Shown: piece by piece, positions 4,255-62,662 of the stretch
How the letters are laid out: the number at the start of each line of letters is the position of its first letter
Numbering within the stretch: position 1 is the stretch's first letter
Virus record (IMG/VR): IMGVR_UViG_3300044984_001443
Location: 5,608 to 69,607 of that record
Direction: 5' to 3' (one strand)
Length of the DNA stretch: 64,000 nucleotides
DNA from: a virus
Position numbers and translations under genes: made by a program
Notes under the pieces: generated by a model
The model's database searches: none
Told to the model about the DNA's origin: nothing
What the model saw: only the letters and a program-made list of their open reading frames with translations

Positions 4255-6198
4255 ATGGCCGACCTTTACGACCTCCTCGCTAAGATCAATAAGCAGAACA
4301 CCCTCAAAGCGCCAGATCGCAATCCGCTGATTTCAAATCAGGCGGAAATGGCGAAGAAGGTGAAAGCGTTTCTGAACAAATACGAAACGAAGAAGGTCGG
4401 CAAGATCGATTCACCTTGGAATAAATACGGTGCAGGTCACGAACTCGGTTCACTTCTATTTGGCGAATCACCCGAACTTCTTGACGACATGTCCTACGGT
4501 CTGAACCCGTTGACCTCAGGTGGTAGAACCGGGCGTCTTCCGATTCCTGACAAACGCCTGCTTGACATGCCTATCCCGACTCCTGTAGAAGGTATGCTCG
4601 GTGTTATCAAGAACAAAGGCGAAAATTGGCTGACTGGGTCGGTTGAAAATGCTTTGAAATATTTGCGACAAACTGAGGGGCCGGAAAATCCCATTGAATA
4701 TATGATGAGGAATCATCCTGATATCGCTAATCCAATTTTAGATCGACCTGATAATTTCAGAAATATAATCAATACTCCTGAATACAAAAGTTACGTTAAT
4801 TCATTACCTATTAATCAATGGATCGACGGTCCGCTTACAAACTACATCAAGAACTCAATGGCGACTCCGGAAGATCCGATTCGCCTGCGTGCAGATCGCC
4901 TTGCAAAAGCGGCAGAAGATCGCCTTTACGCAGCTAAAGATAAAGCATTCAAGAAGTATCCTGAAGGTGGTGTTCGTTTAGAAAACGATATCCGTCGTGC
5001 TCAAGAACGTTACGACGATGAAATGTCGGCGGCGTTGCATTATGATCCTTCATCATATACATTTAACACAGGGTTGTTGAATAAGAAAAGAGGTAATGAA
5101 AATTTTAATCCCGATGGGATGGCTTCTTCTGAACTTGCTAAAATGTGGGAGAATGCTTCAGATTCAGCGATACAACCAGATACTGCTGGAAACTATTCTA
5201 GAAACTGGTTATCTAATCAAACTCCTGAAAATATAGAAAAAGGTTACGTTAAAGAAAGTCCTAACCTATGGGTTAAAAATCTTCCTTCAGATTTGACAAA
5301 AGTTTACGAGCTTTCAGGAAATTCAGTAACCGGTTTCGACCACCTCGTCGACGAAATCGGCAACGCGCTCAGCCCGACATCCGACCTACCAAACAACCTT
5401 CGCCTCACTCCTGAAGACCTCGCAAACCCGCGCAGGAATTCTATGGAATCAATGGTTGACATGGTTGCCAAAATCAACCAACATCGCCGCCGCATGGCGA
5501 TCGAAGCTGAAAAGAAAGGTAACGAAGCGATTCGTGATTATCCTGATTGGAATGTTGTAAAAGAATACCCCGACGGTTATCGCATGGTACGCCTCCCTGA
5601 TGTTGCAGATTCTGAAGAAGCCTTCAAGATCGGTAAAGCCTGCGGCGAGAAAGGTGGATGGTGTACGCAAGGTGACAACATGATCCAGAACTATGGATCA
5701 GGTGAATCGCGTTTGAATCTCCTCCTTGATCCTGATGGAAAACCTGTTGCTCAGATTGAGACAACTAAAGAATATGTTGATCCGATAAATCACGTATATC
5801 ATAATCTTATGGACCATGACAGACGTGTAGAGATAGATGGGTATATGGGTCTCGATGACCGTGGGGCGGTCGATATGGACCCTTGGTACGCCGCCATCAA
5901 AGACTCTCCTGAATACCAAAACTATCTTCAAGAGTCTCCGAAATTCAACATCGGTCAAATCAAAGGTAAACATAACGGCAAACCGAAAGCCGAACATATT
6001 CCGTATCTTCAAGATTTCGTGAAGTCTGGTAACTTCTCGGATGTGAGTGATTTGGATAATGTGGAAATGTATCGAAAGAATTCATTAACCCCTGACGAGC
6101 AATTGTTGGCTGACACTGATTATTTGACAATGGAGCAGATTCAACAGCTCCGTGAAGGAAAACCTTGGACCCCAATTGACACCACTGAAGATTGGTAG
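4255..6198 (+). CDS. large protein with C-terminal PcfJ-GK-like domain (polyvalent-protein family)
   Basis: G..GGWCTQG...YGSG.SRL.LLLD.DGKP.AQIE...IGQIKGKHN. Confidence 0.55.
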   Translation: MADLYDLLAKINKQNTLKAPDRNPLISNQAEMAKKVKAFLNKYETKKVGKIDSPWNKYGAGHELGSLLFGESPELLDDMSYGLNPLTSGGRTGRLPIPDKRLLDMPIPTPVEGMLGVIKNKGENWLTGSVENALKYLRQTEGPENPIEYMMRNHPDIANPILDRPDNFRNIINTPEYKSYVNSLPINQWIDGPLTNYIKNSMATPEDPIRLRADRLAKAAEDRLYAAKDKAFKKYPEGGVRLENDIRRAQERYDDEMSAALHYDPSSYTFNTGLLNKKRGNENFNPDGMASSELAKMWENASDSAIQPDTAGNYSRNWLSNQTPENIEKGYVKESPNLWVKNLPSDLTKVYELSGNSVTGFDHLVDEIGNALSPTSDLPNNLRLTPEDLANPRRNSMESMVDMVAKINQHRRRMAIEAEKKGNEAIRDYPDWNVVKEYPDGYRMVRLPDVADSEEAFKIGKACGEKGGWCTQGDNMIQNYGSGESRLNLLLDPDGKPVAQIETTKEYVDPINHVYHNLMDHDRRVEIDGYMGLDDRGAVDMDPWYAAIKDSPEYQNYLQESPKFNIGQIKGKHNGKPKAEHIPYLQDFVKSGNFSDVSDLDNVEMYRKNSLTPDEQLLADTDYLTMEQIQQLREGKPWTPIDTTEDW

Positions 6199-38568: not shown

Positions 38569-38916
38569 GTGTCTAAAGTGTACTGCGTGACTGAACCGAT
38601 CACTTACCGAGATGGTAATCCAGTTCCGTTATTTGATATTACGCCAGCGATTGAATATGGTGAGATTGAGATTTTGACTCGTCATAATCAGTCGATGCAA
38701 TTCAGCGTTCCAATGATTAGAAGTTTGCGCGACAAGTTGAAGGATTTCAATGACAATGATTTCATTCTTCCTGTTGGTGACCCGATAACTATTGGAGCAG
38801 TCTGCGCGGTTGTAGCTGATATCAATGGTGGTTATTACAAGGTGCTCAAGTGGGATAAGAGAACTCGCAAGTACATGCCGATTGAAATTCAAGTGTGGGG
38901 TAGTCAACTTTCTTAA
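38569..38916 (+). CDS. conserved phage hypothetical protein
   Basis: DITPAIEYGEI, LKDFNDNDFILPVGDP, LKWDKR..KY.PI. Confidence 0.7.
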   Translation: MSKVYCVTEPITYRDGNPVPLFDITPAIEYGEIEILTRHNQSMQFSVPMIRSLRDKLKDFNDNDFILPVGDPITIGAVCAVVADINGGYYKVLKWDKRTRKYMPIEIQVWGSQLS

Positions 38917-38929
38917 TATAGGTGCTATA

Positions 38930-39439
38930 ATGGAAAAAGAATTTACGTTGAAAGACTTGATTTTTGCTGCAAAGTTGCAACAGGAGCTTGAGAATCAACT
39001 CATTAACGAAGAAAATAGGTTGAAAGAAATAAAAGAACAATTGAACTACCAGCGGTACGAAATTGTTCCTGGGATGATGCAAGAACTTGGTATCAACTCA
39101 TTTGAACTTGACAACGGTTACAAGGTGTCAATCAAGGATGAGTATTACGCCAAGATCCCTGAAGCGTTTCAGTATGAGTGTTTCGAGTGGTTGCGTAAGA
39201 ACGAACTTGACGGCATTATCAAAACTGCGGTAAACATGAATTTTGGCAAGGGTGAAGATGAATCTGCTCAACATCTGATTGATTGGATGACTGAGAACGG
39301 TTTAACACCTAATGTCAAAGAAACTGTTCACCCGCAGACCCTCCGCGCCTTTGTAAAGGAAAGGTTATCTAATGGTTTGGAACTTCCTATTGACTATTTT
39401 GGAGCTTCAGTAGTAAAAACTACTGTTATTTCAAAATGA
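38930..39439 (+). CDS. conserved phage replication-module protein (HNH target gene)
   Basis: IVPGMMQELGI.SF.L.NG, FEWLR.N.L.GIIK, VHPQTLRAFVKE pattern. Confidence 0.75.
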   Translation: MEKEFTLKDLIFAAKLQQELENQLINEENRLKEIKEQLNYQRYEIVPGMMQELGINSFELDNGYKVSIKDEYYAKIPEAFQYECFEWLRKNELDGIIKTAVNMNFGKGEDESAQHLIDWMTENGLTPNVKETVHPQTLRAFVKERLSNGLELPIDYFGASVVKTTVISK

Positions 39440-39996
39440 AACTTATCGATTTGGAAAGATTGAAAGAACTTCTGGACTATGATCCAGAAACAGGTTTGTT
39501 TAAGTGGAAGGTTCATTTAAAATATTCTCCAAGATACGAAGGTGACTTGGCAGGTTACAATAATGAAGGTTATGTTAAGATAACCATCGACGGCCTATCT
39601 TATAGAGCACATCACTTAGCATGGTTTATAACTACTGGAAATTGGCCCAAGTTAGAGATTGATCATATTAATGGTGACAAATCTGACAATTCAATCTCTA
39701 ACCTCAGAGATGTGACCAGAATTGTCAATATGCACAACAAAGGTGAATACAAAAATAACAAAACAGGATACACAGGTGTTCACTGGTATCCTAGATATGA
39801 AAAGTTTGCAGCACAGATAAGAACTAATGGTAAGTGTAAGACGTTAGGTTATTTTGAAACCGCTGAAGAAGCTCACGAGGCTTATCAAGAAGCCAAACTG
39901 AAACAACACCCTTCAGCGTTTGTTAAAGAACGTATGTCGGCAGGTCTTGAACTACCTGTTGACTTTTCGGAGCCTCTGTCGTTAAAACGACGGTGA
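39436..39996 (+). mobile_element. free-standing HNH homing endonuclease with AP2-like domain
   Basis: LLDYDPETGLFKW, YRAHHLAW, IDHINGDKSDNSISNLR, NNKTGYTGVHW...LGYFETAEEAHEAY; AT-rich codons. Confidence 0.9.
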
Positions 39997-40007
39997 TTTC
40001 GAAGTAA
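39916..40007 (+). pseudogene. orphaned original 3' end of gene 38930-39439
   Basis: encodes AFVKERMSAGLELPVDF(fs)GASVVKTTVISK*, a duplicate of the upstream gene's C-terminus with a 1-nt deletion. Confidence 0.85.
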
Positions 40008-40223
40008 AGACTTTGCTGGCAGGCTGACAATCCTACTGTCGTTAACGGAGCATTCTGCACCTGACTTGTCTAACGGTGTGGCGTTAGTTGTGGAACGTAG
40101 ATCCGGGGCGAGCATAGCCCGATTGGTCACAACGAGTGCCGACTGACCGGCGTAAGCGGTCATTCTTCAGACTGTGGCAAGTTTGGAGTCTCTCCCTTAA
40201 TTGCCAATCAAAAGGAGCCGATC

Positions 40224-41009
40224 ATGGCGAAAACCGAAGTTGCTGTAAAAGAAAACACCGCTGTTGCAATTGCTGATGATGTCTATTCGCAGGACGCTGG
40301 AAGTGGTTTTGAGGAAACGTCGCAAGAAAGTTATGCGATTCCGTTTCTGAGTATCCTTCAGTCCGGTAGCCCGCAAGTCAAGAAGTCTGATGGGGCATAT
40401 ATCAAAGGTGCTGAAGAAGGTATGCTATTCAACTCTGTCACCCAGGAATGCTACGGTGAAGAAGGTGTTGAGGTCATCCCCTGTCACTACACGCAACGCT
40501 TTATTGAATGGGGTACGCGTGAATCCGGTGGCGGTTTCTTTGGTGAGCACCTACCATCTGATCCGATTTGCAGCACTACGACTCGTGACGAAAAAGGTCG
40601 CAACCTGTTGCCGAACGGCCATGCTCTCAATGACACGCGCAATCACTACGTCCTGATTCGCCGCAATGGTCAGTTGTCGCCGGCCATCATGAGCTTGAGT
40701 TCCACCCAAATCAAAGCATCCAAGCAGTGGATGTCGATGATGCAAGGTATCAAGCAAAAGAACCCGGCGACAGGTATGTTTGAAATTGCACCGATGTTCA
40801 GCCATGCGTACAAAATCAACACCGTTGCTCAGTCTAACGACAAAGGTTCTTGGTTTGGTTACAAGTTTGCAATGGTCGGTAAGGTGACTGATCAGGCTGA
40901 GTACGAGGAAGCCAAACAGTTCAACCACATTGTCAAGTCTGGTTTGGCAAAGGTCGAGCGCAAGATGGAAACTGAGGCTGCGAGCAATACTGCGACTGAG
41001 AAGTTCTAA
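40224..41009 (+). CDS. putative ssDNA-binding/recombination protein
   Basis: DAGSGFE...YAIPFLSILQSGSPQV, SSTQIKASKQW, SNDKGSWFG; acidic C-tail ending in F; strong codon bias. Confidence 0.65.
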   Translation: MAKTEVAVKENTAVAIADDVYSQDAGSGFEETSQESYAIPFLSILQSGSPQVKKSDGAYIKGAEEGMLFNSVTQECYGEEGVEVIPCHYTQRFIEWGTRESGGGFFGEHLPSDPICSTTTRDEKGRNLLPNGHALNDTRNHYVLIRRNGQLSPAIMSLSSTQIKASKQWMSMMQGIKQKNPATGMFEIAPMFSHAYKINTVAQSNDKGSWFGYKFAMVGKVTDQAEYEEAKQFNHIVKSGLAKVERKMETEAASNTATEKF

Positions 41010-44170: not shown

Positions 44171-44280
44171 GCGAAGCGATAGCGATGTTGAAAGCGGTTT
44201 ATAATCGTCTTATAGAGTTACAAAGGTATGTTCCGGCAGCAGAAGTTAAACGAATTATCGAAAGGTTAGAAAATGACTGA
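44167..44280 (+). CDS. small hypothetical protein (37 aa)
   Basis: manual translation MSEAIAMLKAVYNRLIELQRYVPAAEVKRIIERLEND; GGAG RBS, overlaps on both sides. Confidence 0.5.
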   Translation: MSEAIAMLKAVYNRLIELQRYVPAAEVKRIIERLEND

Positions 44281-45130
44281 AATGGAAGAATTGTTCGTTT
44301 ATTGGGTCAAAGAACGTGAAGCAATCCGTGTCAAGAAAGAAGCGGGTGAGCCAAAACCTTGGACTGATGACCCTATTTTCCAGACTTACAAGTTCACAAA
44401 TGTAAGGCGTGAAGATGATACGGTCAGCAAGTGGATCACTGAAAACTGGATTGAGCCGAACGACCCGCATCCGAACATGTGGTTTGCGATGATCGTTGCA
44501 CGTTTGTTCAATTGGCCTCCGACACTTGAAGAGATTTGTTTCCCGCAAATCACCTTTCCAGAACTTAAAGAAAAGTGGCGGCGCAATCTCAAAGGTCTGC
44601 GTGACATTGGTAAAGAGAAGATCTTCACAGGGGCATATCTTGTTTCAACCAACGGTGTGAAGATGGACAAGATTGATTACATTCTTGACCGCGTGTTGAC
44701 TCCGATATGGGAGAAGGGTCGTGCTCCTAAGATACAGTTGCTAAATGAAAATAAACCAGAATCACTCGAAGGATACTGGACACACTTGCGCCAATTCGAC
44801 GGTCTCGGTAGTTTCATGGCAGGGCAGGTGATTGCAGACTTGAAGTTTACTTCTGAACTCAAAGATGCACCAGACTGGTGGACTTGGGCACCCCTTGGAC
44901 CGGGTTCAATTCGTGGTTTGAATCGTTTTCACGGTCGCCCCGTTGATAAATCGTTGCGCCAAGACAAAGGGCTAGAAGAAATTCGTGAAGCACAGCGATT
45001 GTTGTACGACGAACTTGAATGGCATCTTCCGGCGCACAACATACAGAACTGCTTTTGCGAATTTGACAAATACCTTCGCGTCAAGAACGGCGAAGGTCGT
45101 CCCCGTTCACTTTACCCAGGAGTTAAGTAA
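44273..45130 (+). CDS. aGPT-Pplase1-family DNA base-hypermodification protein (HhH-glycosylase-like fold)
   Basis: EREAIR.KKEAGEPKPWTDDPI.QTYKFTNVRREDD, RLFNWP.TL, GLGSFMAGQVIADL, GPGSIRGLNR, QNCFCEFDKY. Confidence 0.85.
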   Translation: MTEMEELFVYWVKEREAIRVKKEAGEPKPWTDDPIFQTYKFTNVRREDDTVSKWITENWIEPNDPHPNMWFAMIVARLFNWPPTLEEICFPQITFPELKEKWRRNLKGLRDIGKEKIFTGAYLVSTNGVKMDKIDYILDRVLTPIWEKGRAPKIQLLNENKPESLEGYWTHLRQFDGLGSFMAGQVIADLKFTSELKDAPDWWTWAPLGPGSIRGLNRFHGRPVDKSLRQDKGLEEIREAQRLLYDELEWHLPAHNIQNCFCEFDKYLRVKNGEGRPRSLYPGVK

Positions 45131-45468
45131 TGACAATGCAAATCAAAGTTTGCGGTTTACCGTTTGATGTCAACTTTGTTGAAGGTGGTCATGCCGTAAG
45201 TCACAATAAAGAACGTATCCATCTATACGGCGAAGTGTCTTACGAAAATGAGTCAATTCGCATTGACAATACCAAATCGTTGCAGATGATGAACCAAACG
45301 TTCTGGCATGAAGTTATGCACGTTATTGTCGAACGTATGAGTATTCGTGAGTTAATGACTCAAGACAATTGTCACCTTGAAGTACCGATTGATCAAATTG
45401 CCCTCGGTATCTTCACTGTTTTGAATAGTATCGATAAAGATGTAATTGTCTACAAGGAGGAAGCATAA
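45130..45468 (+). CDS. HEXXH zincin-like protein
   Basis: YGEVSY..ESIRID...QTFWHEVMH. Confidence 0.6.
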   Translation: MTMQIKVCGLPFDVNFVEGGHAVSHNKERIHLYGEVSYENESIRIDNTKSLQMMNQTFWHEVMHVIVERMSIRELMTQDNCHLEVPIDQIALGIFTVLNSIDKDVIVYKEEA

Positions 45469-46434
45469 ATGCTAGTTATCCGTGGTCAAAATGTAAACGA
45501 TATCTTGCCAGTCGGCATCATGCACTTGAAGAATGGAGAAAAACGTGACTCAAGAAACGGACCGGTCCTCGAAATCCCAACAACTGTTGCAGTGCATTAC
45601 GACTATCCCGATGAACGTGTCCTCTTCGAGCCTTTGCGAGACGCCAACCCCTTCTTTCATCTCTTCGAAAGTCTCTGGATGCTCGCTGGACGCAACGATG
45701 TGGGATTCCTTAATGAATACAACTCAAGAATGGCGCAGTACAGCGATGACGGGCAAGGATTCAATGCTGCCTACGGGCAAAGACTTCGTTCCGGATTTGG
45801 CTATGATCAACTTGATGAAGTCATTAAACGTCTCAGAAAAGATCCCGACGATAGACAGGTCGTACTTCAAATATGGGATACCGCTGACCTTACAAAAGAC
45901 ACTAAAGATAAAGCCTGTAACCTAGTTATCACCCCGCGCATCCGTAACGGCAAACTCGACTGGACAGTGTTCAATCGTAGCAATGATTATTTGCTCGGCA
46001 TGACCGGAGCTAATGTCGTTCACATGTCGATCATTCAAGAATATGTTGCTCGTATGATCGGTGTGCCAATGGGCAGCTACGAGCAGATCAGCAATTGTCT
46101 ACACGTTTATACAGAACTGACGCCGCATTGGGAGAAGATGAAAGACCTACCTTTGACCGTTGACTGCCCTTACAAATCTGCCCGCGTTACACCGTTCCCA
46201 TTGATAACCAACAAAGAAAGTTGGATGTCAGATCTGTACACTTGGATGGACAAGCTGTGGGGCGGACAGGTTTACGTTGATCCGTTCTTTAACTACGTTG
46301 CGAAGCCGATGGCTATCGCGCACCGGGCACACAAGGATGGGCGCAACGGGTTACAATATGTAAACGCTATACAGGCAACCGACTGGAGATTAGCTTGTGA
46401 ACAATGGCTTACTCGCCGTGAATCAAGTGTTTGA
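45469..46434 (+). CDS. thymidylate synthase-family enzyme, probably dUMP hydroxymethylase
   Basis: SRNGPV, RDANPFFHLFESLWMLAGRND, AYGQRLR, KDKACN (catalytic Cys), NRSND..LG..GANVVH (Asn at the dUMP-specificity position). Confidence 0.85.
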   Translation: MLVIRGQNVNDILPVGIMHLKNGEKRDSRNGPVLEIPTTVAVHYDYPDERVLFEPLRDANPFFHLFESLWMLAGRNDVGFLNEYNSRMAQYSDDGQGFNAAYGQRLRSGFGYDQLDEVIKRLRKDPDDRQVVLQIWDTADLTKDTKDKACNLVITPRIRNGKLDWTVFNRSNDYLLGMTGANVVHMSIIQEYVARMIGVPMGSYEQISNCLHVYTELTPHWEKMKDLPLTVDCPYKSARVTPFPLITNKESWMSDLYTWMDKLWGGQVYVDPFFNYVAKPMAIAHRAHKDGRNGLQYVNAIQATDWRLACEQWLTRRESSV

Positions 46435-60271: not shown

Positions 60272-60434
60272 GTGGGATAGGTTGTATAAGTTCTGAGTTG
60301 TTGCTTAGATATTCCGGGTATCTAAGCTGAGTTGGGGAAGTGCCACCACATCCGTGACCAACGATATGCGAGGCGAGAGCTTCGAGTGTTGAGGTAGGTG
60401 GGTAGCAACTCAGAACTTATGCAACTTATCCCAC
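60272..60434 (+). ncRNA. putative structured ncRNA with 31-bp closing stem
   Basis: 60272-60302 pairs with 60404-60434 with three G-U wobbles; internal hairpins GCTTAGATA/TATCTAAGC and CGAGGC-GAGA-GCTTCG. Confidence 0.65.
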
Positions 60435-60480
60435 CCCTTATCTTTTAAACATTTTGCCGGAATGGCAATAGGAGAATCAA

Positions 60481-60987
60481 ATGTCTGATGAAATGATGGT
60501 TGCTGAGAAAGCCGGTATGTTGGTTGGTACGACTGACGAAGGTGCTGTTGAGGTTATCGGTTGGGTGATGGCAGGTGATGAGTATGACCTGCGCGAAGGT
60601 GAAACTCTGGTTACGCATCACAAGACCGCTGAGAAATTGGGTGTTGGCGATATGTTCAAGACCATGAAAGCTGAGAACGCCCCGGTGAAAGCCAAGAAAG
60701 AAAAGGTCGAAGGTGAGCCGGGTGAACGTGCTGCTCGTGAGCGTTTCGAACTGACTCCTGAAATGAACTTCGAAGTGCTGCGCCCTGACTTCGTTGCCGC
60801 AACTACTGAAGATGATCGCGGTGAAACCTATCGCCTGCTGTTTGATTTGAAGAACGTCGGTAAGTTCTTTGAAGCGACCAAAGGTTATAAGTTCATCGGC
60901 GAGCGTGACGGTAAAGAGAAGTTCTGTACCGCTCGCGAATGCGTAGTCTATGCCTTCAAACGCGGCGCTATCACACGCCCTGCTTAA
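60481..60987 (+). CDS. hypothetical protein, probably highly expressed
   Basis: TAGGAG RBS, biased codons. Confidence 0.75.
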   Translation: MSDEMMVAEKAGMLVGTTDEGAVEVIGWVMAGDEYDLREGETLVTHHKTAEKLGVGDMFKTMKAENAPVKAKKEKVEGEPGERAARERFELTPEMNFEVLRPDFVAATTEDDRGETYRLLFDLKNVGKFFEATKGYKFIGERDGKEKFCTARECVVYAFKRGAITRPA

Positions 60988-61025
60988 TTGAACTCCCTTG
61001 TAGCGTTCTCACTAAACGCTGCTTT

Positions 61026-61061
61026 GCCCGCCCAGTCTTCGGATTCGGCGGGCTTTTTCTT
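61026..61061 (+). terminator. intrinsic terminator
   Basis: GCCCGCC...TTCG...GGCGGGC followed by TTTTTCTT. Confidence 0.8.
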
Positions 61062-61171
61062 GGGCGTTATACGACGCGTTTTAAGGCGTTAGAGCACAGC
61101 AAGGTATGCCGTACTATATGCAAGGTAACTCTGATGCGCTGTAGGCGGTCGTATATGGGTTAAATAGTGGC

Positions 61172-61200
61172 TTGCTAAAGAATTAAACCTTGGCTACCAT
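61172..61200 (+). promoter_or_regulatory. sigma70-like promoter TTGCTA-17-TACCAT
   Basis: hexamers; family member. Confidence 0.6.
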
Positions 61201-61242
61201 GCAATTGCCGTTATGTAACGGTTTATCTTATAGGGGCTAGAA

Positions 61243-61320
61243 ATGAAACACTTTGAACAGCATCAATTCTACTGGTTTGTCGCACTTCCTTGTGATCTTC
61301 CGCGTTGCTATCTTATCTAA
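61243..61320 (+). CDS. 25-aa peptide
   Basis: manual translation MKHFEQHQFYWFVALPCDLPRCYLI; first ORF after promoter, TAGGGG RBS. Confidence 0.45.
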   Translation: MKHFEQHQFYWFVALPCDLPRCYLI

Positions 61321-61330
61321 GGAGAATGAA

Positions 61331-61363
61331 ATGAGCGATTACGAAATGGTTGCGATTCTCTAA
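61331..61363 (+). pseudogene. orphaned original 5' end (MSDYEMVAIL*) of gene 62041-62232
   Basis: strong TAAGGAG RBS; EMVAIL repeated in the downstream gene's N-terminus. Confidence 0.75.
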
Positions 61364-61409
61364 CACTTGTGGTACAATTTACAATGTACCATACTTAATG
61401 GAGAGTATC

Positions 61410-62054
61410 ATGGAATGGAGGTCTTTGGAAGAGTTTCCCAGTTATCAATTTTCAGACACAGGTCTTGTTAAGAAAGGCGACAAGTATGTGAACGTACATT
61501 TCTGGGGAAGATACCCTGCGGTAAGTTTATCAAATGGTTTTATGAGAAAGAGATTCAGAATCCATCGTGTTGTCGCATTGCTGTTTATTGGACCTTGTCC
61601 AGATGGGCAAATGGTTAGACATCTAGATGATGATCCTGAGAACAATAATGTTTCCAATCTTGCTTATGGAACCAGAGAAGATAACATTGCAGATGCCATT
61701 CGTAACGAAAGATTTAAGAAAGGTGACGAACATCATTCTAGAATAAATCCTGAATGTATGGCGAGCGGTGATAGAAATGGTGCAAGAACTCACCCTGAAA
61801 GTTTATCTAGAGGAGATAAGCATTGGACAAAACTCGACCCTGAAAAGTTGGCAAAAGGTAATAAACACGGTTCTAAAACTCATCCAGAAAGAGTGGCGAG
61901 GGGTGAACGGTGTGGCGCATCAAAGTTGACACAAGAGGCGGTTGATGAAATACGAGCTACTGAAAATTACTATGGTTGTGTGAATGCGTTGGCTAAGAAG
62001 TTCAACGTGAATCGGCAAACTATTACAAAGGTCAGAAAACATGAAACATGGTGA
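61410..62054 (+). mobile_element. free-standing NUMOD4-HNH homing endonuclease with C-terminal 15-aa repeats
   Basis: MEWRSL..FP.YQFSD.G (NUMOD4), IHRVVA..FIGP.P, VRHLDDDPENNNVSNL.YGT.EDN, repeats (H/D/N)PE...(R/K/S)G, C-terminal HTH. Confidence 0.9.
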
Positions 62055-62232
62055 TCAGTTTGAAATGGTAGCAATCTTAATGGCGCGTGACGGTATGTCT
62101 CGTGAAGAGGTCATGGAACAAATCAACGGGTTCAAGGAAGAGATCTTGATCAACGGTTGTTACGATGTTGAGGAAGACTTTATGTTAGAGTTCGGACTTG
62201 AACCTGATTACTTGGTTGATATTTTGTTTTAA
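62041..62232 (+). CDS. conserved small phage protein (HNH target gene, recoded N-terminus)
   Basis: LMARDGMSREE...FGLEPDYL.D pattern. Confidence 0.7.
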   Translation: MKHGDQFEMVAILMARDGMSREEVMEQINGFKEEILINGCYDVEEDFMLEFGLEPDYLVDILF

Positions 62233-62243
62233 GGAGAAATGAA

Positions 62244-62387
62244 ATGTCTAACCTTTCAGGTAAAAAGTGGTTCTATTCGATGGGTCAAAGGGATGCTTCC
62301 GTCAATAAGCGCATGTTGAATCGTAAGCAAAGTTCTTGGCCCGCGTGGGCTAGAAGTGCTTATGTCAATGGTTTTCACGGGCTTTAA
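62244..62387 (+). CDS. 47-aa basic protein
   Basis: manual translation MSNLSGKKWFYSMGQRDASVNKRMLNRKQSSWPAWARSAYVNGFHGL; TAAGGAG RBS. Confidence 0.55.
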   Translation: MSNLSGKKWFYSMGQRDASVNKRMLNRKQSSWPAWARSAYVNGFHGL

Positions 62388-62394
62388 CCTGCGC

Positions 62395-62439
62395 TTGTTA
62401 CCGACGTTGCGGCATTGCATAATTTGCTTGCCGCAATGT
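62395..62439 (+). promoter_or_regulatory. sigma70-like promoter TTGTTA-17-CATAAT, -10 in loop of an inverted repeat
   Basis: ACGTTGCGGCA/TGCCGCAATGT arms; near-copy of the 57751 promoter. Confidence 0.65.
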
Positions 62440-62461
62440 TGCGGCTTATAGGAGAAACGAA

Positions 62462-62662
62462 ATGAGCGCTGTAGAAGAACTTCAATTGAGAATCTGCAAA
62501 GCACCTTGTTCAGATGAGGTTTATAAGATCGTTGAAGATGCGCTGAACGTAATTGGTCACCTTGAAGCAACCTTGGCGTTTCGTAACTTTGAAGTTAAGC
62601 GGTTGACGGAAAAGAACCAACGTCAGGTCAAAATGCTTGAACAATGTGGATACGGAGAATAA
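62462..62662 (+). CDS. hypothetical protein
   Basis: TAGGAG RBS. Confidence 0.6.
   Translation: MSAVEELQLRICKAPCSDEVYKIVEDALNVIGHLEATLAFRNFEVKRLTEKNQRQVKMLEQCGYGE

Follow-up and report, generated by a model that had tools for sequence, protein, structure and literature searches.

Phage endonuclease genes are known to lie between genes, to overlap their neighbours or to split genes into two polypeptides, and the seg and mob genes of phage T4 overlap adjacent genes by 11-24 bp (PMC2988022). Where such a gene sits within a conserved coding region, as mobE does in nrdA of Aeromonas phage Aeh1 (PMC3045599) and mobA between T4 genes 39 and 60 (PMC2988022), host function is kept by two polypeptides that reassemble, with no duplication. 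A further arrangement is described for mitochondria, in which endonuclease open reading frames (ORFs) called mORFs replace gene C-termini, in atp6 of Allomyces macrogynus and in atp6, atp9, cox2 and nad3 of Glomus sp. (PMC3630166). Here we analyze an HNH endonuclease gene in a 64,000-nucleotide window (the whole stretch of DNA analyzed, positions 5,608 to 69,607 of IMG/VR virus record IMGVR_UViG_3300044984_001443), where it interrupts the 5' end of a small gene, hereafter the target gene, and is flanked by two copies of that gene end. We consider it probable that a free-standing HNH homing-endonuclease gene invaded the target gene's 5' end through break repair and flank exchange, and that only products with a whole gene survived. 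The locus would then be a natural example of a homing endonuclease gene placed inside a coding region without intron or intein, at the cost of a duplicated gene end.

Compared with these systems, the gene shares several features with the T4 mobA-mobE, I-HmuI-like HNH_3 type, namely the HNH_3 domain, an ORF that stands alone and has start signals of its own, a patchy distribution among relatives and an overlap with its neighbour. However, genes of that type lie between genes or split one, whereas this one lies inside a 5' end of which a segment is duplicated, so that the interrupted gene remains whole. Like mobE in nrdA and mobA, it is found within a conserved coding region whose function is kept, but as a 10-residue orphan plus a complete gene. 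Similar to the mitochondrial mORFs, as far as PMC3630166 describes them, an endonuclease ORF lies between two gene-end copies, of which in the mORFs one is functional and of different origin and the other displaced. The mORFs encode LAGLIDADG or GIY-YIG enzymes and are always found at the 3' end, while here we observe a phage, an HNH enzyme and a 5' end; in addition, the orphan keeps its ribosome-binding site and is translatable, and the new start codon of the host gene lies inside the endonuclease ORF. Literature searches directed at phages returned no description of a duplicated gene end beside a phage endonuclease gene, so that gene-end duplication by an endonuclease gene is apparently undescribed in phages.

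The HNH locus and its two gene-end copies

The interrupted locus comprises the following features.

61319..61324, plus strand, ribosome-binding site AAGGAG of the orphaned 5' end, with a 6-nt spacer to the ATG
61331..61363, plus strand, mini-ORF MSDYEMVAIL plus stop, codons 1-10 of an MSDY-type allele and orphaned native 5' end
61361..61369, plus strand, nine bases TAACACTTG that separate the remnant of the target from the conserved leader of the cassette, the left junction
61370..61391, plus strand, cassette leader TGGTACAAT, extended -10-like by consensus match only, within the palindrome TGGTACA-N8-TGTACCA
61400..61405, plus strand, ribosome-binding site GGAGAG of the HNH gene, with GGAGA at the equivalent place in the paralogue L087
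61410..62054, plus strand, free-standing HNH endonuclease gene, 214 amino acids (aa), Pfam HNH_3 (E 4.7e-13) and PHROG 59 'HNH endonuclease' (E 2.4e-34)
62041..62232, plus strand, target gene, complete, 63-aa acidic protein with N-terminus MKHGDQFEMVAILMARDGM
62053..62079, plus strand, downstream copy of the repeated 5' segment (DQFEMVAIL), the functional one

The gene-end copies flank the HNH ORF at 61337-61360 and 62053-62079. Upstream, the mini-ORF reads ATG AGC GAT TAC GAA ATG GTT GCG ATT CTC TAA, and the TAA, itself part of the nine-base TAACACTTG, closes it exactly at the junction. Downstream, EMVAIL is encoded by GAA ATG GTA GCA ATC TTA, which differs from the upstream copy at 5/18 bases, all of them synonymous. 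Of all 6-residue words in the 63-aa protein, EMVAIL alone recurs in a six-frame translation of the 64-kb window, at 61343, compared with a mean of 0.07 in 100 shuffles. The target ATG lies inside the last HNH codons, where CAT GAA is read in another frame, giving a 14-nt overlap with the HNH ORF; the HNH stop TGA (62052-62054) is in turn made up of DQF-allele letters, the T being the third base of codon 2 and the GA the start of codon 3. Nine nucleotides upstream of the target ATG only AAGG is found, while empty alleles (L003 and the contig ends from four lake-water runs, X7-X10) carry AAGGAG with a spacer similar to that of the orphan. The 14-nt overlap and the weak AAGG suggest that translation of the target is coupled to that of the HNH gene. 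An initial annotation made from the letters of this DNA had pointed out the ribosome-binding site, the mini-ORF, EMVAIL in different codons and the overlapping start at 62041, and all of these statements hold.

Homologues of the target protein were collected by protein search and aligned, giving 35 clusters of 59-84 aa with the window's own protein included. Twelve of the 35 clusters begin exactly with MSDYEMVAIL, 11 with an exact and uninterrupted MSDYEMVAILMARDG in which MARDG continues, and 24 contain DYEMVAIL within their first residues. DQFEMVAIL is restricted to two clusters, the window's own protein and P0002. The closest MSDY clusters are P0003 and P0004, and a metagenome scan with an MSDY-type protein returned 3 loci only. 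HNH-free alleles were compared as DNA at three loci, L083 (MSDY), L082 (MSEDY) and L003 (MSDQF). The L083 allele reads ATG TCT GAT TAC GAA ATG GTT GCG ATT CTT ATG GCG CGT and is identical to 61337-61359 at 23/23 bases. L082 encodes MSEDYEMIAIL and is thus of DY type, yet uses the codons GCA ATC TTG, and L003 reads ATG TCT GAT CAG TTT GAA ATG GTT GCA ATC TTA ATG GCG. Because of the homologue N-termini and the DNA match to L083, the mini-ORF is the native 5' end of an MSDY-type allele, cut after codon 10 and directly before the invariant M-A-R-D-G block. This is the insertion point that the initial annotation had named, and the contiguous N-terminus it predicted for HNH-free homologues is found both in the MSDYEMVAILMARDG clusters and, as uninterrupted DNA, in L083.

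Modeling of the target protein yielded four helices with a mean predicted local distance difference test (pLDDT) score of 84.8, averaging 93 over residues 11-20 and 66 over residues 1-10. Helix 1 is predicted for residues 5-17 and disorder is limited to residues 1-3. The duplicated part encodes the first two-thirds of predicted helix 1 (residues 5-13), and from this position the model indicates that the target protein needs it. In contrast, the first residues differ among homologues (MS, MG, MSN, MSSN), and because of this variation and the disorder of residues 1-3 the replacement of MS by MKHG is likely harmless. The target protein has no Pfam, PHROG or PDB fold match at E <= 0.001, and a collection of cultured phages contained no match to the DNA (near and distant searches) or to the 63-aa protein.

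The HNH gene had been called a NUMOD4-HNH gene. Its HNH part is borne out by the HNH_3 match, but NUMOD4 is absent from its Pfam matches at E <= 0.01 and appears, as PF07463, in some homologues. Among 11 aligned sequences H52 and H71 are invariant and D73, D74, N79 and N83 are conserved in at least 90%. The nearest homologue among the matches listed is 55% identical, and the paralogue L087 from a scan of related loci, a free-standing, intergenic gene on a 68,992-bp contig, is 57% identical; HNH homologues start with MEW[RK]SL. The gene is equipped with a ribosome-binding site and an ATG of its own, stands in a different frame and has a stop codon upstream. A search of Rfam over 60900-62500 gave no intron family (E <= 1) and a single small RNA match at chance level. 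In view of the missing intron match, the independent start signals and the upstream stop codon, the HNH gene is not located in an intron or intein. A group I intron is defined by a ribozyme core and joinable exons, neither of which is seen here, and the duplication makes splicing unnecessary.

The left limit of the cassette, designated cassette 2, is given by comparison with L087, as the two leaders align from about 61368 onward and lose all similarity upstream. In the window the leader runs from TGGTACAAT and the palindrome to GGAGA and ATG GAA TGG. The counterpart in L087 is TGCTACAAT with the palindrome TGCTACA-N8-TGTAGCA, both arms of which are altered relative to the window, and the hairpin is predicted to fold in both (z -2.6 in the window, z -4.1 in L087). 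At the right end, the window's HNH protein stops directly after the conserved TW, while L087 has 7 further residues and 10/10 aligned homologues extend beyond the conserved aromatic position (W in 8/10, Y in 2/10). Since L087 and all aligned homologues run past TW, the right junction must fall at the end of the HNH ORF or within that end. Base composition gives no sign of where cassette 2 begins or ends, and a search of viral contigs for the leader motif matched the same strain alone.

The HNH gene is sporadic, the same site being empty in the relatives L003, L082 and L083 and in MGDY-type contigs. It is found upstream of the target homologue in 1/80 viral loci, and this one, L002, belongs to the same strain. 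In the four lake-water runs (X7-X10) an empty MGDY-type relative (...AAGGAGAATTAAA ATG GGC GAT TA...) reaches contig depths of 55, 41, 11 and 291 and the HNH-bearing form depths of 1-11, contig depth being a rough measure. Runs X7-X10 contained no same-strain contig joining across the HNH gene, which is not informative on whether such a form exists. Among the runs listed for the stretch, 0/24 are RNA runs. Over the 3569 bases compared, L002, a further contig in IMG/VR, matches the window throughout, and a 1376-nt contig from run X7, which carries no flag as a possible source, spans 61029-62404 with both junctions and zero differences. Because L002 and the run X7 contig assembled the same structure independently, it is not an assembly quirk.

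Allelic mosaic and order of events

Comparison with the DQF-type, HNH-free locus L003 resolves the surroundings of the cassette into a mosaic.

60293-61243, about 90% identity to L003
About 61160-61310, near 100% identity to L003
61243..61320, plus strand, conserved 25-aa ORF (MKHFEQHQFYWFVALPCDLPRCYLI) in the left flank, identical at 68/68 bases (61243-61310) to L003 1131-1198
61311-61360, ribosome-binding site and orphan, unlike L003
62052-62161, plus strand, 108/110 (98%) identical to L003, starting with the HNH stop TGA and thus with the right junction
Rest of the target gene, about 82% identity to L003
Further downstream, about 75% identity to L003

The near-100% tract contains one indel, an extra 59-aa gene that L003 carries at 924-1118 between a conserved promoter/stem-loop region and the 25-aa ORF and that is absent from the window. 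The functional gene end had been interpreted as recoded by the cassette. Since HNH-free L003 has the 108/110 tract, the downstream copy is instead a natural DQF-type allele, and its codon differences from the orphan are allelic variation rather than recoding. The proposal that the cassette supplies a new N-terminus is upheld insofar as the second copy starts at an ATG overlapping the HNH end, but with L003-like tracts on both sides either copy may have come with the cassette. The 25-aa ORF starts with MKH (ATG AAA CAC), as does the target gene in its new form (ATG AAA CAT, 62041-62052), which is probably a coincidence.

We propose that the invading HNH gene would have brought its own leader, consisting of a promoter-like TGnTACAAT within the palindrome followed by a ribosome-binding site, into a conserved early gene of small size. 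Codons 1-10 of the common MSDY-type allele, together with their ribosome-binding site, would thereby have been stranded upstream as a ten-codon ORF, and a second copy of codons 3-10, from a DQF-type allele and lying 3' of the HNH gene, would have completed the target gene. To be translated, the target would now need its weak Shine-Dalgarno sequence, re-initiation by ribosomes that have just completed the HNH gene, or both. The duplication itself probably stems from the repair of a double-strand break in which one junction or more was non-homologous (one-sided homing), together with flanking exchange between the two allele types. The arrangement would reach us through a selection filter on complete genes and would not be something that the cassette is built to do. 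For phage T4, PMC2988022 describes one-sided homing in which breaks are repaired illegitimately at microhomologies; there the td intron, with homology on one side only, formed non-homologous or microhomologous junctions, a proposed route to new sites (Parker, Belisle and Belfort 1999, after the summary in PMC2988022). The td case is a laboratory intron system, whereas here a natural free-standing gene is involved and the mechanism is read from the footprint only. The proposed invasion is supported by the gene-end footprint that two other HNH genes of the genome share.

Two histories would lead to the present locus. In history (a) the HNH gene would first have taken the place of the first two codons of a DQF-type gene, lying immediately in front of it, and then have entered an MSDY-type genome by one-sided repair, leaving the recipient's first 10 codons behind. 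In history (b) it would first have inserted after codon 10 of an MSDY-type gene and then moved, together with the orphan, into a genome of DQF type. History (a) would keep the gene functional at each step, while history (b) would be the better fit to the flank identities; both require at least one non-homologous junction. Judging from the flanks, the orphan may equally well be the copy that traveled with the cassette. A microhomology join was also considered, linking ATT CT of codons 9-10 to ATT CTT TAA, the end of the 25-aa ORF in L003, but it stays speculative, as no such donor was found.

Duplicated gene ends at other HNH genes

The 69,607-bp genome encodes four HNH_3 genes, the other three of which are as follows.

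39436-39996 (locus 39347-40007), cassette 1, HNH_3 and AP2, at the 3' end of a Pam3 gp33-like gene
L112 908-1477 (locus 860-1720), outside the window, minus strand, third HNH_3 gene, after a 383-aa gene
L113 1285-1785, minus strand, fourth HNH_3 gene, intergenic, upstream of the window's first ORF (4-516), which follows on the opposite strand

Three of the four, cassette 2 included, are accompanied by a duplicated gene end, and in all three the HNH stop lies within target-derived letters. The Pam3 gp33-like gene ends in AFVKERLSNGLELPIDYFGASVVKTTVISK*, and its stop shares bases with the start of the cassette 1 HNH ORF. This ORF finishes in a second copy of this gene end (AFVKERMSAGLELPVDF..., 39916-40007) that is fused in frame to the HNH C-terminus and has a 1-nt deletion in a T run. 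The site is empty in five relatives (L107-L111) with a contiguous gene end, which reads ...FVKERMSAGLELPVDFFGASVVKTTVISK* in L107-L110. The displaced copy is native-like, with 95% identity to L109, and the last approximately 200 nt of the functional gene are 62-75% identical to relatives compared with 80-88% for the gene body. Sequence identities thus indicate that the functional 3' end of cassette 1 is foreign and the displaced copy native.

At the third HNH gene, the preceding 383-aa gene ends in ...RRIELQALDRWTAFNSK followed by a 10-residue tail, and a second copy, LENLDRWEAFNGKAANV*, lies after the HNH gene. The last approximately 13 residues of the gene occur twice, as LDRWTAFNSK... before and LDRWEAFNGKAANV* after it, and TGGTACAAT is again found 8 nt past the junction. 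This site is empty in L117 (same contig as L003), with a contiguous end ...RRIELQALDRWEAFNGKAANV*, and in L118 and L119, which diverge after AFNG. No flank duplication was found at the fourth HNH gene. At the genome's three duplicated sites the repeats are about 24, about 40 and about 90 nt long.

Cassette 1 and the third HNH gene, both at 3' ends, are the direct counterparts of the mitochondrial mORFs. A foreign functional copy, as in the mORFs, is seen for cassette 1; in cassette 2 the copies correspond to two natural alleles with L003-like flanks on both sides. The link to mitochondrial gene hybrids suggests a common outcome of endonuclease-driven break repair.

The use of gene-end replacement by two HNH architectures had been taken to indicate a general strategy. 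It recurs at 3/4 HNH genes in this genome but at 0/18 other loci sampled, and the principle is already described for mitochondria (PMC3630166), so that the sequence comparisons favor generality within this genome only. In viral contigs, tblastn was run on 20 loci, of which 8 were taken as distinct for the word test, and 0/8 of these IMG/VR HNH loci had a flank duplication. Among cultured phages it was 0/10 HNH loci, drawn from 10 of 84 matching records. Both counts come from a small sample and a survey that needs 6 identical residues or a strong tblastn match and misses short or diverged repeats. Matches of tblastn in high-GC actinophages were Arg/Pro-rich off-frame artefacts and were left uncounted. 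It is possible, though rather doubtful, that HNH cassettes of this phage lineage regularly enter gene ends by copy-and-join, leaving a duplicated end and an HNH stop in target DNA.

Competing explanations and wider context

Several observations weigh against an invasion through break repair and flank exchange. Neither junction has clear microhomology, and the left one holds nine extra bases. The L003-like tracts on both sides of the orphan and cassette are compatible with an orphan that traveled with the cassette into a DQF-type genome or with the reverse, and no intermediate, that is, an HNH gene with one of the two junctions, was found for either history. The coupling of target to HNH translation would have to work through the 14-nt overlap and the weak AAGG, the target site and cut position of the enzyme are deduced from sequence, and the occupied copies are all identical, giving no variation by which selection on the mini-ORF could be judged.

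A different reading holds that the duplication is part of the mobile unit, the cassette carrying a deliberately different 5' copy that restores the gene and destroys its own recognition site, which would confer self-immunity. The copies do differ where the target site should lie (5/18 EMVAIL bases, and DY versus DQF), the functional copy at cassette 1 is clearly foreign by the identities given above, and the DQF type is rare, one of its 2/35 clusters being the occupied form. However, the DQF allele exists without an HNH gene in L003, the codons GCA ATC TTR also occur in the empty DY-type allele L082, L003-like tracts flank both sides, and an immunity of the DQF allele is a supposition from its sequence. 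We rate such a built-in strategy as rather unlikely. A direct repeat that abuts both ends of the insert, at three insertions in one genome, could also recall a target-site duplication, in which the cassette joined at a widely staggered break, fill-in copied about 24 nt on both sides and later recombination diverged the copies. No HNH homing enzyme is known to work in this way. Transposon target-site duplications are identical repeats of fixed length, whereas the copies here differ by an indel and substitutions (5/18 bases) and the repeat lengths vary widely, as listed above, which makes this origin improbable.

The mini-ORF might instead have been retained for a function, either as a leader peptide or structure that tunes HNH expression or by supplying the cassette promoter with a -35 box. 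TTGCGA (61350-61355) stands 17 nt upstream of the TG-preceded TACAAT, and a predicted CUCUA/UGGAG pairing resembles the masking of ribosome-binding sites in T4 endonuclease genes as described in PMC2988022. But L087 has the same leader without such an ORF, -35 box or masking stem, and a 5-bp stem and a 9/12 consensus match are weak signals, the promoter scan having returned 4 sites versus 2.9 in shuffles. A functional mini-ORF is therefore also a poor prospect. That the HNH gene lies inside a gene is the only argument for a group I intron or intein that carries an endonuclease ORF, or for an artefact of chance or assembly. With no intron match in Rfam, a mini-ORF that ends in a stop, a downstream copy that is complete without splicing, an HNH gene with its own ribosome-binding site in a different frame, the same structure in L002 and the run X7 contig and a chance expectation of 0.07, we give these explanations practically no weight.

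If invasion by break repair is correct, the locus lends itself to testing, as empty alleles of both types are known, the orphan predicts the cut site and the alleles predict sensitivity. For annotation, it would account for a translatable ten-codon ORF and an unusual MKHG... N-terminus, which are otherwise called as unrelated features. Should copy-and-join hold widely, an orphaned end would show, directly from genome sequence, where an uncharacterised endonuclease cuts and which alleles were donor and recipient, and such footprints would make up many of the short orphan ORFs and unusual N- or C-termini beside phage HNH genes.

Two further observations concern the leader. A promoter-like site at 61350-61378 combines a -35 box TTGCGA inside the orphan remnant, a 17-nt spacer and the TG-preceded TACAAT in the cassette, by consensus match only. 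The predicted RNA fold of 61358-61405 (-15.2 kcal/mol, z -2.6) encloses the conserved hairpin in a pairing between CUCUA, from the last orphan codon and the stop, and UGGAG in the ribosome-binding site of the HNH gene; L087 has the hairpin but no masking stem. As a genome-wide promoter word TGNTACAAT was rejected, with 4 matches versus 2.3 expected.

Elsewhere, 38569-41006 and 44273-46431 of the window encode Pam3 gp32/33/34-like genes, a gene with a 5-hydroxymethyldeoxyuridine (5-hmdU) DNA kinase domain and a thymidylate-synthase-like gene, a gene content that points to a phage with hypermodified thymidine. The genome also has an SU10-type adaptor and direct terminal repeats. In the 12,426-bp same-strain contig L002/L116 (IMGVR_UViG_3300044952_000568) the window's right end continues into the genome's left end, as expected from terminal repeats or concatemers.

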